Source of the DNA: Minisyncoccota bacterium
GTDB taxonomy: Bacteria > Patescibacteriota > Minisyncoccia > Phycocordibacterales > PALSA-1337
Direction of reading: 5' to 3'
DNA length: 64,000 nucleotides
Assembly: GCA_036170235.1 (NCBI GenBank)
Contig: JAVHOW010000017.1
Location: 4,143-68,142 of the forward strand
Position 1 is the first letter of the stretch; each line of letters starts with the position of its first letter. Under the pieces are notes generated by a model, which worked only from the letters and a program-made list of their open reading frames with translations, was not told the origin of the DNA and ran no database searches. Made by a program: the position numbers and the translations under genes. Positions 16,179-20,584 of the stretch are shown here, piece after piece.

Positions 16179-16207
16179 TTGACATATATAGAGTTTGGGT
16201 GTACAAT
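16179..16207 (+). promoter_or_regulatory. sigma70-type promoter of DGR target 1
   Basis: TTGACA (16179-16184), 17 nt spacer, TACAAT (16202-16207). About 108 nt upstream of the ATG. Confidence 0.55.
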
Positions 16208-16315: not shown

Positions 16316-16972
16316 ATGAGCAACAAGGCATCATTAACAAACACGGAACTGGAAGTCACACAAAAAATGCAGACGCATTTTCCACGCGGCTTGGATACGA
16401 AAGTGCTCGGAGCCGTCAACAGTTGCCCAGTGGAAAATCTCACCGCGGCGCTTATGGAGATGGTGGATAAATTGGCGAGCGGTGCGAAAGCCAAAGTCAG
16501 CAAACTCCTCGAATTGGTGACGTCGGTGAAAGTTGCTGCCGTCAAGGAGTTCATCGCCGCCGACAAATTCAAAGCTGGTGAAACAGTTGATGGGGTGAAG
16601 TATTACTCCTCATTCGGCGGCAACTTCATCAAGCACTTCCTGTCCAAGGTTGAGAGAGATGTGGCAGCGACGGATCTTCGGGTCCACAAACTGCTGTGTA
16701 ATTCCAAAGACCTTGGCATCCGCACAGGGATTGGTGAGGACAATGAAGAGACCAGCCTCGCGCACCTTCAGCAGTGCTTGAAGCGTCAGGGTAACGGTGA
16801 AAAAGGTGATCTCCTGATCAATGGTTGGGCGAACATCTTCTACATCCGTGACATGGACGGCAACCTCTGGGCCGTGCGCGCGTACTGGTGCGGCGTTGGT
16901 TGGTGCCTCAGTGCCGACTCCGTCGAGGACCCGGATGGTTGGAGTGCTGGCGACCAGGTCTTCTCCCGCTGA
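16316..16972 (+). CDS. DGR variable protein (target 1), C-terminal VR
   Basis: 218 aa. The last 35 codons are VR1. Paralogous to 19021..19614 (shared ...NIFYIR...GNLWAV...W...GW.L.A.SVE.P..W.AG.QVFSR). No signal peptide or TM seen. Confidence 0.85.
   Translation: MSNKASLTNTELEVTQKMQTHFPRGLDTKVLGAVNSCPVENLTAALMEMVDKLASGAKAKVSKLLELVTSVKVAAVKEFIAADKFKAGETVDGVKYYSSFGGNFIKHFLSKVERDVAATDLRVHKLLCNSKDLGIRTGIGEDNEETSLAHLQQCLKRQGNGEKGDLLINGWANIFYIRDMDGNLWAVRAYWCGVGWCLSADSVEDPDGWSAGDQVFSR
16865..16970 (+). repeat. DGR variable repeat VR1
   Basis: 106 nt aligned to TR 17304-17409 without gaps. There are 15 differences, all at TR adenines. Confidence 0.9.
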
Positions 16973-17023
16973 TTCTTTGTGGTTTTGAACCTCTGCGTTT
17001 GTGTTCTGACACTTTGAATCTCA

Positions 17024-17066
17024 GACCCTCTGAAACTTGCGAAAGTTTTGGAGGGTTCTTTTTTTA
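17024..17066 (+). terminator. hairpin plus T-run after target 1
   Basis: gaccctc...gagggtt outer stem, aaactt/aagttt inner stem, then a T-run at 17057-17067. Confidence 0.6.
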
Positions 17067-17078: not shown

Positions 17079-17303
17079 ACAGAGTGAGGATGTCTAAGCT
17101 GTGGCGGTTACGACTTCCACGGAGCGCCTTGGGTATCAAGGTTCGAGAATCGTTTCAAATATTATTTCAAACGAGTGGGGATATTGATATTCAAAAAAAT
17201 AAAAGAATCGGTGCGATATGTCAGATGGTTTCGAGGACCACGCAAAATAGTGAACCTCCCGAGTATTCGAGGGGTAGTCGTACGGATGACATATCGCACG
17301 AAG

Positions 17304-17409
17304 CTCTGGGCCGTGAACGCGAACTGGTACGACGATGGTTGGAACCTCAATGCCAACTCCGTCGAGAACCCGAATGATTGGAATGCTGGCAACCAGGTCT
17401 TCTCCCGCT
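17304..17409 (+). repeat. DGR template repeat (TR)
   Basis: A noncoding copy of the VRs. It carries 24 adenines, mostly in AAC/AAT codons as read in the VR frame. It is invariant elsewhere relative to both VRs. Confidence 0.9.
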
Positions 17410-17421
17410 ATTCATTTTTTT

Positions 17422-17445
17422 CTTCTCTACTTTATTGTAGAGAAG
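17422..17445. terminator. bidirectional hairpin shared by the TR transcript and avd
   Basis: cttctctac (17422-17430) pairs with gtagagaag (17437-17445), followed by ttttcttt on the plus strand. The avd stop codon lies in the loop. Confidence 0.6.
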
Positions 17446-17779
17446 TTTTCTTTATCATATCCTTTCTCCACCCGCCGACATTTTTTCCAATAGTTTCAAG
17501 TTCTGTACCAAAAGATATATATTGCTCATTGGACATCAAACGGTTTTCCCAAAGCAATTGGATGAAGAATCTGATGTCGTCGACTTTTACAACAGCGATT
17601 TCTAGTAGTGATATTTTTTGTTTTGGTTCAGAAAATGAGGCTCTTCTCAATGCTGTGAGTAAATCAAGAAAGGCATTATCTATTCTGGAACCAAGCCCAA
17701 ATCGTTCAGTGCGCGGGATTTTCCTATGAATAATTATCCATGATGAATAAAGTAGTTTAACTTTTTCCACAACTGGCAA
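17432..17779 (-). CDS. avd: DGR accessory variability determinant (Avd; four-helix-bundle, 23S rRNA-IVS protein family)
   Basis: 115 aa. IPRTERFGLGSRIDNAFLDLLTALRRA resembles the Avd FPK.ERF.L..QIRRAA motif. It lies directly beside the DGR RT. Start is a non-ATG codon (TTG 17779 or GTG 17770). Confidence 0.8.
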   Translation of the reverse strand: MPVVEKVKLLYSSWIIIHRKIPRTERFGLGSRIDNAFLDLLTALRRASFSEPKQKISLLEIAVVKVDDIRFFIQLLWENRLMSNEQYISFGTELETIGKNVGGWRKDMIKKTSLQ

Positions 17780-17799
17780 ATATGCTGGTGAAATTGGTT

Positions 17800-17813
17800 G
17801 GGGGGGGGTGGGG
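17800..17813. repeat. homopolymeric G9-T-G4 tract in the avd/RT divergent control region
   Basis: g(17800-17808) t g(17810-13), immediately upstream of TAGACT (17814-17819). Confidence 0.9.
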
Positions 17814-17820
17814 TAGACTT

Positions 17821-18840
17821 ATGAGTATGTGCCAAATTAAGAATATTCATACCTACGAGGATATCATTTCTATGGAAAATTTGCTTGAAGCCTGGAAAGA
17901 GTTTGTGCGTGGAAAAAGAAAAAGAATTGATGTGCAAGACTTTCAATTACGATTATTTGAAAACATCCAGAAACTTCATTCTGATCTTAAAAACATGTCT
18001 TATAGGCATGGCTGTTATACTCCCTTCAAAATCAACGACCCGAAACCTCGTGACATTCACAAAGCATTAGTGAGAGATCGACTTCTCCATCACGCCGTAT
18101 ATAGAAAATTATATCCATTTTTTGATCGTACATTTGTAGCGGATTCCTATTCGTGTAGGAATGAAAAGGGGACACACAGAGCTTTCAATAGGTTTGGCGA
18201 TTTTGCGTACAGATCATCATTCGCGCACACCAAAACGGTCTACGTACTCAAGTGTGATGTAAAGAAATTTTTTGCTTCTATAGATCATCAGATTTTATTT
18301 GTAATTCTTGAACAATACATTCCTGACGTAAATATCATGTGGCTGGTACGAGAAATCGTTAATAGTTTCTGCTCAACAAAAAAAGGAGTTGGTTTGCCGC
18401 TTGGTAATCTGACGTCGCAATTATTTGTGAATATTTACATGAATGAGTTTGACCAATTCATTAAGCATAAACTCAAAGCAGAATGGTATATCAGATATGC
18501 CGATGATTTTGTCATTCTGAATCAAGACCGAAAATGGTTGGGGTTTGTTCTTCAAGAAATTCAAAATTTCTTGAATGAAAAATTGCACTTAATTCTTCAT
18601 CCAAATAAAATAAGCATTGAAACATTTGCTGGAGGAGTTGATTTTCTTGGCTGGATTCATTTCCCAAATCATCGAGTATTGAGAACTGCTACTAAAAAAA
18701 GAATGTTTAGGAATATTGAGATGAAGAAAGGGCAGAATGATCTGGACAAATTGAATGCGACGATTTGGTCATATTTAGGAATGTTGGGTCACGGAGATGG
18801 GTATGGGTTGGAGTGTGTGATCTCAAGATCAATAGTCTAG
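17821..18840 (+). CDS. DGR reverse transcriptase
   Basis: LPLGNLTSQLFVNIYMNEFD (the DGR-specific LGxxxSQ motif), IRYADDFVIL (YxDD) and KCDVKKFFASIDH. The start is more likely ATG 17821 or 17827 than the track start 17782. Confidence 0.92.
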   Translation: MSMCQIKNIHTYEDIISMENLLEAWKEFVRGKRKRIDVQDFQLRLFENIQKLHSDLKNMSYRHGCYTPFKINDPKPRDIHKALVRDRLLHHAVYRKLYPFFDRTFVADSYSCRNEKGTHRAFNRFGDFAYRSSFAHTKTVYVLKCDVKKFFASIDHQILFVILEQYIPDVNIMWLVREIVNSFCSTKKGVGLPLGNLTSQLFVNIYMNEFDQFIKHKLKAEWYIRYADDFVILNQDRKWLGFVLQEIQNFLNEKLHLILHPNKISIETFAGGVDFLGWIHFPNHRVLRTATKKRMFRNIEMKKGQNDLDKLNATIWSYLGMLGHGDGYGLECVISRSIV

Positions 18841-18882: not shown

Positions 18883-18911
18883 TTGACAGATATATACTTT
18901 ATGTGTATAGT
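18883..18911 (+). promoter_or_regulatory. sigma70-type promoter of DGR target 2
   Basis: TTGACA (18883-18888), 17 nt spacer, TATAGT (18906-18911). About 110 nt upstream of the ATG. Confidence 0.55.
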
Positions 18912-19020: not shown

Positions 19021-19614
19021 ATGAGCAAAAACAAGTACAATGACATAAATAACGGTCAAAACTTCGCCATATACACCAAACTCGGTGGACCCGAGGGCGT
19101 GAAAAGGTTCTTGGCAGGTGAACTGATTATGCGGAAACCGTCGCCTAATCGCCGACTCAAGTCCGTGGATGCGGTCGAATGCCCGAGGATCGAACGTTTC
19201 GAAGCAAAGGACAACTTCGGCAAAGGTGTGGTCAACGGAGTGAAGTTTTATGATTTCAACGAGAATTTCAAAAAACTTTTCATTCCAAAAGTCGAGACTG
19301 ACGTTGCTGAGACGATTCTCCAATCCCACCAACTCCTTCGGAATTCGAATGATCTGGGCATTCTCAAGGAGATCGAGGATGGCAAGGAAATCACAAACCT
19401 AGCGCATCTTCATTACGCACTCACACTCCAAGGTGATGGTCGGGGTGGTGTACTACTGGTTAACGGATATGCAAACATCTTCTACATCCGCGGTACTGAT
19501 GGTAACCTCTGGGCCGTGTTCGCGGACTGGTGCGACGATGGTTGGAGCCTCAATGCCCACTCCGTCGAGTACCCGGATGTTTGGAATGCTGGCAGCCAGG
19601 TCTTCTCCCGCTGA
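19021..19614 (+). CDS. DGR variable protein (target 2), C-terminal VR
   Basis: 197 aa paralog of target 1, ending ...NLWAVFADWCDDGWSLNAHSVEYPDVWNAGSQVFSR. Confidence 0.85.
   Translation: MSKNKYNDINNGQNFAIYTKLGGPEGVKRFLAGELIMRKPSPNRRLKSVDAVECPRIERFEAKDNFGKGVVNGVKFYDFNENFKKLFIPKVETDVAETILQSHQLLRNSNDLGILKEIEDGKEITNLAHLHYALTLQGDGRGGVLLVNGYANIFYIRGTDGNLWAVFADWCDDGWSLNAHSVEYPDVWNAGSQVFSR
19507..19612 (+). repeat. DGR variable repeat VR2
   Basis: 106 nt aligned to the TR without gaps. There are 10 differences, all at TR adenines. Confidence 0.9.
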
Positions 19615-19664
19615 TTCTTTGGGGTTTTGACCCTCTGTGTTTGTGTTCTGACACTTTGAATCTT

Positions 19665-19705
19665 TGGCGCTTTGAAACTCATGGGGTTTTGGGGCGCCAT
19701 TTTTT
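19665..19705 (+). terminator. hairpin plus T-run after target 2
   Basis: tggcgc (19665-19670) pairs with gcgcca (19694-19699), followed by T6. Confidence 0.6.
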
Positions 19706-19751
19706 GTGGGAGAAATTAGTATAATTACAGTTTTTGTGTTATATTTCTGAT

Positions 19752-20159
19752 ATGAAAATTGATGCTTATACATCAGCCATTACAGCTTTTGCCGAGAAAT
19801 ACGAGCTTGATTTCGTGGTACTTTTTGGTTCACAGGCAACCGGAAAAACACATTCAAAAAGTGATGTAGACATTGCAGTGATCAAGCGTGGCGAGATTAA
19901 TGTTGCTCGTTTGGCGGTTGAATGTGAGAAAATATTTAAACGTGAAGATGTTGAAGTCATAAGTCTTTCTGGAGCGTCGCCAACACTTATGCGCGCGGTA
20001 TATAAAGATGGAATTCTTTTGTACGAAAAAGAACCGGGGACATATCTCAGATGGAGAGTGTATGCGGCAAAAATCTGGATGGATACCGAATGGTTACGCA
20101 GAATGCGTGATCGTAAACTTATGGATTGGTCCAAGGCATATAATATAGCTAATGCATAA
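19752..20159 (+). CDS. mntA: nucleotidyltransferase-domain antitoxin (MntA-like)
   Basis: The VVLFGSQATGKTHSKSDVDIAV motif (GSx10-SDxD) of minimal nucleotidyltransferases. I chose the ATG at 19752. Confidence 0.8.
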   Translation: MKIDAYTSAITAFAEKYELDFVVLFGSQATGKTHSKSDVDIAVIKRGEINVARLAVECEKIFKREDVEVISLSGASPTLMRAVYKDGILLYEKEPGTYLRWRVYAAKIWMDTEWLRRMRDRKLMDWSKAYNIANA

Positions 20160-20164
20160 TTCAA

Positions 20165-20584
20165 ATGAATTATCCAGAAATAAACAGAAAGCTCGAAATC
20201 TTGCGTGGATACATGGAAACTCTCAAACCATACAGCGTTATGGATTTTGCTGATATATTGAAAAATGAAGAGAGAATTTTAGCTATGGAACGATTGTTTC
20301 AATTAATTGTTGACGAAGCCGCTGACATCAATTCATATATTGCATATCAAGTTTTGAACAAAGTTCCTGAATCATACAAATCTTCCTTTGGTGTTTTAGT
20401 GGAGGGTAATATCCTCGATCAAACTCTCATAGATACTATATCCGAATCTGCCAAAGTTAGAAATCAAATTGTTCATGATTATGAAAAGTTACAGAAAAAA
20501 GACGCAGTATCAGCCATACAGAAATTCTTTCCTGTTTACGAACAATATTTAGATGCGTTAGTAAAAAAGTTTATTGCAAATTAG
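20165..20584 (+). CDS. hepT: HEPN-domain toxin (HepT / DUF86)
   Basis: VRNQIVHDY is the Rx4HxY HEPN motif. It lies 5 nt downstream of the MNT gene. Confidence 0.8.
   Translation: MNYPEINRKLEILRGYMETLKPYSVMDFADILKNEERILAMERLFQLIVDEAADINSYIAYQVLNKVPESYKSSFGVLVEGNILDQTLIDTISESAKVRNQIVHDYEKLQKKDAVSAIQKFFPVYEQYLDALVKKFIAN

Follow-up and report, generated by a model that had tools for sequence, protein, structure and literature searches.

The avd/RT junction in a diversity-generating retroelement

The DNA considered here, a stretch of 64,000 nucleotides from a Minisyncoccota bacterium (assembly GCA_036170235.1, contig JAVHOW010000017.1, positions 4,143 to 68,142) that is referred to below as the window, contains a diversity-generating retroelement (DGR) with a reverse transcriptase (RT), the accessory protein Avd, one template repeat (TR), as well as two variable repeats (VR1 and VR2). 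The RT gene and avd are arranged divergently, and a G9-T-G4 simple-sequence repeat is situated where their 5' ends meet. This tract is probably a contingency locus within the 5' coding region of avd, which would gate Avd and, through it, the activity of the DGR.

With an E-value of 1.9e-10, which passes the curated cut-off, the minus-strand open reading frame (ORF) at 17432-17779 matches the Pfam family bAvd, and RVT_1 is matched by the plus-strand ORF that ends at 18840 (E 1.8e-20), such that the identification of the flanking genes as avd and RT in the original prediction is borne out. The bAvd body frame is open on the minus strand from the tract onwards (17432-17800), and the RT, its start being placed by alignment to relatives (M-x-K/Q-I-K/Q-F/N-x-H), occupies 17827-18840 on the plus strand. 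On the plus strand as well, the TR is situated at 17301-17409, VR1 at 16862-16970 (3' end of the target gene 16316-16972) and VR2 at 19504-19612 (3' end of the target gene 19021-19614). Every mismatch between the TR and the two VRs falls on an adenine of the TR, and VR1 and VR2 differ from one another; therefore, the element has acted on both targets. With RT, Avd, TR and two VRs present, the locus is a DGR. The TR/VR comparison was confined to the window; in relatives, clustered variable sites are found at the expected VR positions (three species groups). The closest relatives of the RT are the RTs of Patescibacteria loci that have the divergent avd and the junction repeat in common.

From 17780 to 17829 the window reads ATATGCTGGTGAAATTGGTTGGGGGGGGGTGGGGTAGACTTATGAGTATG; G9 (17800-17808), a single T (17809) and G4 (17810-17813) are followed by TAGACT and by the ATG codons at 17821 and 17827. 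On the minus strand, i.e., the strand of avd, the repeat at 17800-17813 is read as C4-A-C9 within the proposed 5' coding leader of the gene, where it would give Pro-Pro-Pro-Pro. The G+C content of the window is 41.9%, and its composition predicts about 0.07 runs of at least G9 per window. The G9 part is the sole G or C run of at least 7 nt in the 64 kb, the runners-up being two G6 runs and no C6 run, such that the tract is confirmed both in its sequence and as unique of its kind in the window. An independent Logan assembly of run SRR25490533 matches 6174 nt exactly, including the G9. The G9 part alone is long enough for strong hypermutability, and the T interrupts the tract. Rfam yielded no match at the junction, its sole match being a sub-threshold Na+ riboswitch at 18536-18584 (E 0.13) that is probably due to chance, and a sigma-70 pattern scan gave no promoter at the avd/RT junction.

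Junction repeats among relatives and within species

A genome scan with the RT yielded 80 loci of different species (58-73% identity), nearly all of them titled as Patescibacteria-type lineages. Among these, 68 possess a run of G6-G14 at the avd/RT junction, with a mode of G9-G10; when the window is included (69 poly-G loci), G8 occurs 11 times, G9 and G10 18 times each, and G11 12 times. In 486 kb of relative loci, 65 runs of at least G8 are situated at the junction vs 4 elsewhere. Another simple repeat is found at the junction in eight loci, namely (GT)n in L014, L019, L064 and L066, (CT)n in L062, (GGCT)n in L022 and L068, and (GATTGCT)n in L072. Concerning the remaining four loci, L038 has no repeat, L045 and L046 have a decayed tract, and the contig of L042 ends at the tract. 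The last of these opens with C52 (L042:1-52) exactly at the expected poly-G site, which probably reflects a break in the assembly or an artefact of poly-G reads in the tract.

The units of the junction repeats measure 1, 2, 4 or 7 nt, none of them a multiple of 3, and the replacement repeats span roughly 17-84 nt. The (GATTGCT)n repeat leaves the avd strand open in all frames and places stops in all three frames of the RT strand. L062 and L066 keep the repeat adjacent to avd, with the RT start about 45-130 nt away. To judge from these loci, the conserved property of the junction is its repetitiveness and not its sequence. A role as G-quadruplex, as Shine-Dalgarno (SD) motif or of another sequence-specific kind was considered and rejected, because unrelated repeats stand in for poly-G.

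An invariant tract length in related genomes had been named beforehand as the finding that would speak against a switch; the length was found to vary, from G6 to G14 in the 69 poly-G loci and also within four species. For the latter comparison, contigs whose RT proteins are identical, or else alleles of one and the same Avd, were set side by side for five related species; look-up via RT proteins that are called through the tract (P0013) favours one length, and alleles were recovered via the Avd proteins. Four of the five species possess tract alleles. For P0005, G8 (5 contigs) is in frame, with a 149-aa bAvd called, and G9 (4 contigs) is out of frame, with a 96-aa stub called. P0009 (L002) has G9, G10 and G11, the second of these in frame. 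In P0003, which is 79% identical to the window RT, G9 (3 contigs) and G11 (1 contig, in frame) are separated by one mismatch and a 2-nt indel over 2325 nt. In P0013, C10 and C13 are in frame (Avd with PPP or PPPP) and C12 is out of frame, and its alleles exhibit no mismatches besides the tract indel over 1620 nt. The fifth species, P0046, has G9, out of frame, in all of its 10 contigs.

Across the whole locus, the columns that vary within species belong to the tract and to the VR clusters, with two exceptions: a lone substitution in the P0003 group and, in a P0005 contig (L108), an upstream segment of the target gene that is divergent. The VRs thus compared vary between samples in related species. 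Considered as individual loci, L110-L116, L118-L121 and L101-L109 differ between samples only at the tract, at VR positions and at the L108 segment, and L097-L100 differ only at the tract and by a single isolated substitution. When JGI metagenome contigs were scanned for the window flanks with a variable tract, there were no matches.

Reading frames on both sides of the tract

Concerning the RT, the start codon and the N-terminus M-x-K-I-Q-F-x-H are common to the relatives, lie downstream of the tract and align to the window ATG at 17827; no conserved upstream RT start was found among the relatives, and the residues upstream are not conserved. This alignment places the RT start at 17827 and the tract outside the RT coding sequence, and the starts at 17782 or 17821 that had been considered previously are probably wrong. 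The 352-aa ORF (P0001) that begins at 17782 in the gene calls is an artefact, produced because the G run contains no stop; by exact-protein look-up, it is the only RT gene call on record, and look-ups of a 339-aa RT and of the 115-aa Avd gave no match.

Directly 3' of the tract and 7 nt before the RT ATG, TAGACT (17814-17819, plus strand) is a member of a TAnnnT box that is conserved among relatives (T1 in 17 of 18 loci, A2 in 16 of 18, T6 in 17 of 18). The box is likely the -10 element of the RT promoter, and its distance to the ATG suggests that the RT mRNA would be leaderless or nearly so. The original prediction had combined TAGACT as a -10-like box with TTGGTT as the -35: the former may well stand, whereas the latter is unsupported, since no conserved -35 at a fixed distance from the TAnnnT box was found among the junctions of the relatives. 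When CTGGCA (the Leu-Pro codons of avd read backwards) is tried as a fixed -35, the spacers are broad, with 15-22 nt. For avd, a minus-strand promoter with TTGAAT, 15-16 nt and AnnnTA was dropped by inspection, its spacing being too short and its -10 poor.

The avd start at 17779 is probably wrong as well, in that the leader of the gene appears to start inside the RT gene on the opposite strand. The proposed native start is the minus-strand ATG at 17848-17850, the reverse complement of the codon CAT for the conserved His of the RT, and the leader overlaps the first 8 RT codons in antisense (24 nt, window 17827-17850). In the window allele, the leader ORF (17734-17850, minus strand) reads MNILNLAHTHKSTPPPPNQFHQHICQLWKKLNYFIHHG followed by a stop and is out of frame with the bAvd body; it begins with MNILNLAHTHKSTPPPPNQF and stops at 17734, and the Avd frame itself meets a stop at 17819-17821. 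A tract of G10 or G7 would join the leader to Avd (MNILNLAHTHKSTPPPPQPISPAYLPVVEK...). Examples of the predicted leader peptide are MNILNLAHTHK and STPPPPQPISPAYLPVVEK.

Among 57 loci, the minus-strand frame that begins at the ATG opposite the His codon reaches the tract without a stop in every one, and the other two minus-strand frames are open to the tract in 5 and 11 of the 57. As a control, windows of 13 codons were taken from RT gene bodies, and 58% of them are open in the same codon-aligned antisense frame. Codons that would form antisense stops (TTA, CTA, TCA) make up 0 of 12 Leu and 0 of 24 Ser codons in the part of the RT that the leader overlaps, vs 26% of Leu and 23% of Ser codons in the RT bodies (depletion in the overlap, P about 5e-5). 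Because the frame is open in all 57 loci and antisense-stop codons are avoided, the leader is under selection to stay open.

Loci with other repeats speak for the same arrangement: an ATG-initiated frame passes through the repeat into Avd in L072, L064, L062 and L066, and a GTG-initiated one in L068. In L062, an SD motif and an ATG are situated directly 5' of the repeat. A usable start at the conserved Leu codon of Avd is absent in all eight loci with other repeats. L064 exhibits a particularity in that the ATG codons of RT and avd share a CATG palindrome.

Many bAvd proteins in databases, 131-149 aa in length, start with M-x-x-L-N/D-x-S/A-H-x4-T-P-P-P...LPVVEK, and in relatives gene callers place the bAvd start (138-149 aa) at the equivalent ATG. 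When one G is added, the window Avd aligns end to end with the 131-149-aa bAvd proteins (74-78% identity). The residues QPISPAY, situated upstream of the TTG at 17779, are conserved at the protein level with in-frame homologues, and in homologues whose tract has decayed (P0121, P0124, P0127) the fused frame is fixed. Faced with the antisense overlap, gene callers shorten avd, let the RT run through the tract or begin it at an internal Met, and the result is a systematic mis-annotation in public records.

With G9-T-G4, the window allele is out of frame. Of 57 species representatives, 8 are in frame, and the two out-of-frame states are represented by 23 and 26. Because both are equally common, a single programmed ribosomal frameshift is argued against.

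The proposed avd switch, its alternatives and known systems

If the repeat acts as a contingency locus, translation of avd would start at the minus-strand ATG 17850-17848, 24 nt inside the RT gene, would cross about 12 leader codons and then the poly-C tract as 2-5 prolines, and would reach the four-helix-bundle bAvd domain only if the tract length sets both parts in frame. Slipped-strand mispairing at replication would add or remove Gs and would thereby produce heritable, reversible Avd-ON and Avd-OFF states, with which the adenine mutagenesis of both target genes would be switched. The window allele would be OFF, and G10 or G7 would be ON. In the Bordetella phage system, the RT needs Avd for cDNA synthesis (PMC7826257); this is established there and not for the DGR of the window. 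The evidence consists of a repeat that is conserved and specific, an antisense leader frame that is open, the natural polymorphism that toggles the frame and the in-frame gene products in databases; from the sequences we infer the start codon in use, the loss of Avd function in OFF alleles, the rate at which switching occurs, its reversibility and its effect on DGR activity. As regards the phase switch originally suggested for this junction, the idea of a slipped-strand ON/OFF switch holds, whereas the two mechanisms put forward for it, a promoter spacer and a frameshift of the RT, largely do not.

Beyond the single locus, the hypermutable avd repeat might gate targeted hypermutation throughout the clade: genomes would be mostly OFF, rare slippage variants would turn the system ON, and reverse slippage would lock a successful variant. 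We lean towards this wider proposal, albeit by a narrow measure. If true, it would constitute a two-tier evolvability switch that keeps a useful variable-protein sequence from being mutated away, and the scarcity of in-frame consensus alleles (8/57) would be the footprint of that dynamic.

Several observations weigh against the contingency locus. An enrichment of the in-frame state had been expected, and the opposite was found (8 of 57 vs 19); such a scarcity fits a mostly-OFF system and would likewise arise if fusing the upstream ORF to Avd were disfavoured. The overlapping RT codons confound the conservation seen in the leader peptide, and the sole SD-like motif of the ATG 17850-17848 is a weak AGG that lies two bases upstream. 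A TTG at the conserved Leu, found in many loci and in the window at 17779, might permit some synthesis of Avd that is independent of the repeat. The T interruption cuts the pure tract of the window down to G9, and one species (P0046) exhibits no variation in its 10 contigs. Finally, the species of the window itself is represented by two identical assemblies, its closest relative being 79% identical.

Among the other explanations, phase variation of the RT by way of a promoter spacer, with the tract between -35 and -10 and its length setting promoter strength, can draw on the conserved TAnnnT box right after the tract, on the 15-22 nt spacers with CTGGCA as -35 and on L036, which uses such a design (TTGCCA and TATAAT on either side of an 18-nt spacer that contains G10, and 6 nt further on the start codon ATG of another gene). 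We nevertheless consider it unlikely: there is no conserved fixed -35 and the distribution of spacers is broad, the candidates in the window give 14 nt (the TTGGTT/TAGACT spacing of the original prediction) or 23 nt, most replacement repeats are too long, the repeat of L062 and L066 adjoins avd at 45-130 nt from the RT start, and the antisense frame that is open in 57 of 57 loci is left unexplained. Promoter spacing is unlikely to be the general function of the repeat; it may act as a secondary effect in poly-G loci, and a secondary effect of the tract on the adjacent -10 box of the RT is possible. That the RT starts at the ATG 17782, such that the tract encodes VGGGWG and slippage frameshifts the RT, is highly improbable. 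The window ORF is indeed open from 17782 and was chosen by the gene caller, giving the 352-aa P0001, but the start and N-terminus shared by the relatives lie downstream of the tract and the residues before them are not conserved, in 15 of the 69 poly-G loci, among them the window, the RT frame meets a stop between tract start and RT start, and (GATTGCT)n has stops in all plus-strand frames. A sequencing or assembly artefact, or a chance homopolymer, can practically be dismissed. Poly-G is a known artefact of two-colour Illumina chemistry, and L042 begins with C52 at the tract site; the same junction feature, however, recurs in 68 of 80 independent assemblies from many projects and years, the NCBI and Logan assemblies are identical, and the chance expectation is 0.07 per window.

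There are two further explanations. Long homopolymers promote RNA polymerase slippage, and by transcriptional slippage, or by ribosomal frameshifting at the tract, a fixed small fraction of full-length Avd could be made, which would amount to tuning and not to a heritable switch. Besides this general tendency of long homopolymers, such a mechanism would explain why the DGRs look intact, and why the VRs vary between samples, although 49 of 57 consensus alleles are out of frame. It is quite unlikely as the explanation of the repeat, given that no single programmed shift fits out-of-frame states of 23 and 26, that polymorphism restoring the frame is directly seen in DNA, and that tetra- and heptanucleotide repeats are poor slippage sites for polymerase or ribosome; transcriptional slippage could coexist with DNA switching. 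Alternatively, the frame from the ATG could be a separate proline-rich upstream ORF that regulates avd, with avd starting at the TTG/Leu and the tract merely moving the end of the upstream ORF. The under-representation of the in-frame fusion (8/57) and the TTG that many loci carry at the conserved Leu codon speak for this, but loci that lack a start codon near the Leu (TTA, CTA, CTG or CTC; QPKLIPVV subgroup) could not make Avd in this way, the residues between the tract and Leu-Pro-Val are conserved at the protein level, and variants with a decayed tract are fixed in the fused frame; we regard it as very unlikely. Both explanations fit the data less well than a contingency locus in avd, given that alleles at the DNA level restore the frame, that some loci are without another start and that tracts which have decayed are fixed in frame.

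Translational phase variation through repeats of poly-G/C or of tetranucleotides close to the 5' ends of ORFs is described for Neisseria, Haemophilus and Campylobacter, e.g., for hmbR and hpuA (PMC3786947, PMC4965091, PMC11868660). The avd repeat resembles these contingency loci in that its unit is not a multiple of 3 and is situated just downstream of a start codon (here a putative one), in that the tracts are typically G8-G13 and their length varies between near-identical genomes, toggling the frame of the ORF, and in that interrupted or decayed tracts are fixed in one state. There are differences as well: where the known loci gate a surface antigen or a restriction-modification enzyme, the gated gene would here be an accessory factor of targeted hypermutation, the hosts are uncultivated groundwater Patescibacteria, free-living or episymbiotic, and not host-adapted pathogens, and the leader overlaps the divergent RT gene in antisense.

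Phasevarions are whole regulons switched by phase-variable DNA methyltransferases. As in these, one simple repeat would switch a system with wide downstream consequences, whereas the effect here would concern the mutation rate of specific genes and not gene expression. Promoter-spacer homopolymer switches are known from porA and opc of N. meningitidis. The poly-A of nspA is a further switch of this type (PMC6389960). The situation at the RT is similar insofar as a G/C homopolymer lies directly 5' of its -10-like box, and L036 (TTGCCA, 18 nt, TATAAT) is a clear example of the type; in contrast, no fixed -35 was found at the avd/RT junction, and the long repeat variants as well as L062 and L066 do not fit.

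The DGR of Bordetella phage BPP-1 has the order mtd-avd-TR-brt (PMC5758913, PMC7826257). The window DGR has in common with it the RT, the four-helix bundle of Avd, adenine-specific TR/VR differences and hairpins downstream of the VR, whereas it differs in that avd is divergent from the RT with overlapping 5' ends, in that two targets are present and in that avd contains a hypermutable repeat. A control of avd by a repeat is undescribed for BPP-1 and in the DGR surveys searched, and full-text searches that included Wu 2017, Roux 2021 and a 2022 review gave nothing that connects DGRs with simple repeats or with phase variation of the element, the principal paper on DGRs of the candidate phyla radiation (CPR), Paul et al. 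2017 (Nat Microbiol), being outside their scope. Classical translational phase variation and a standard DGR of the Patescibacteria clade are the known parts of the system; new, judging by the papers searched, are a hypermutable repeat that would gate an accessory gene of hypermutation, its conservation throughout the clade and the antisense 5' overlap of avd and RT.

Surveys class many DGRs as "active" or "inactive" without a known cause (PMC8144416). For DGR activity in cells, a conserved contingency repeat in avd would provide a simple ON/OFF control that is heritable and reversible. If true, contingency loci would be extended to Patescibacteria/CPR bacteria, one mutational mechanism would gate another, and an annotation problem in the gene calls of avd and RT would be exposed.

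Two further G runs were observed in L036. A second G10 lies inside a near-consensus promoter (L036:3390-3430), followed by the ATG of a gene for a signal-peptide protein, and the next gene ends in a motif that, judged by eye, resembles a C-type lectin VR. In its layout, this site resembles a promoter-spacer phase switch, which suggests a wider occurrence of contingency loci among these Patescibacteria. A third G10 is situated directly 5' of TGATAT, 6 nt and the ATG of a 133-aa ORF (L036:5240-5290), which by eye resembles a second four-helix-bundle (Avd-like) protein. In L026 (6050-6085), convergent genes enclose a G9 that serves as the 3' arm of a terminator-like hairpin (CCCCGGCAC...GTGTCGGGG) and is unrelated to the DGR switch.

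In the window itself, each VR together with its downstream flank belongs to a 233-nt segment, of which the two copies (16805-17037 and 19447-19679) are 84% identical. Both copies end in or extend into a long hairpin that resembles a terminator (17024-17057; 19665-19699) and probably corresponds to the one by which the VR is flanked in DGRs. Another terminator-like hairpin (17422-17445) follows the TR and overlaps the stop codon of avd; it may end both the TR RNA and the convergent avd transcript. Near-consensus sigma-70 promoters are situated about 100 nt 5' of both targets, with TTGACA-17-TACAAT at 16179-16207 and TTGACA-17-TATAGT at 18883-18911. Directly 3' of VR2, at 19734-20584, the DGR is followed by a toxin-antitoxin pair consisting of a nucleotidyltransferase (Polbeta/MNT) and a HepT-like RNase.

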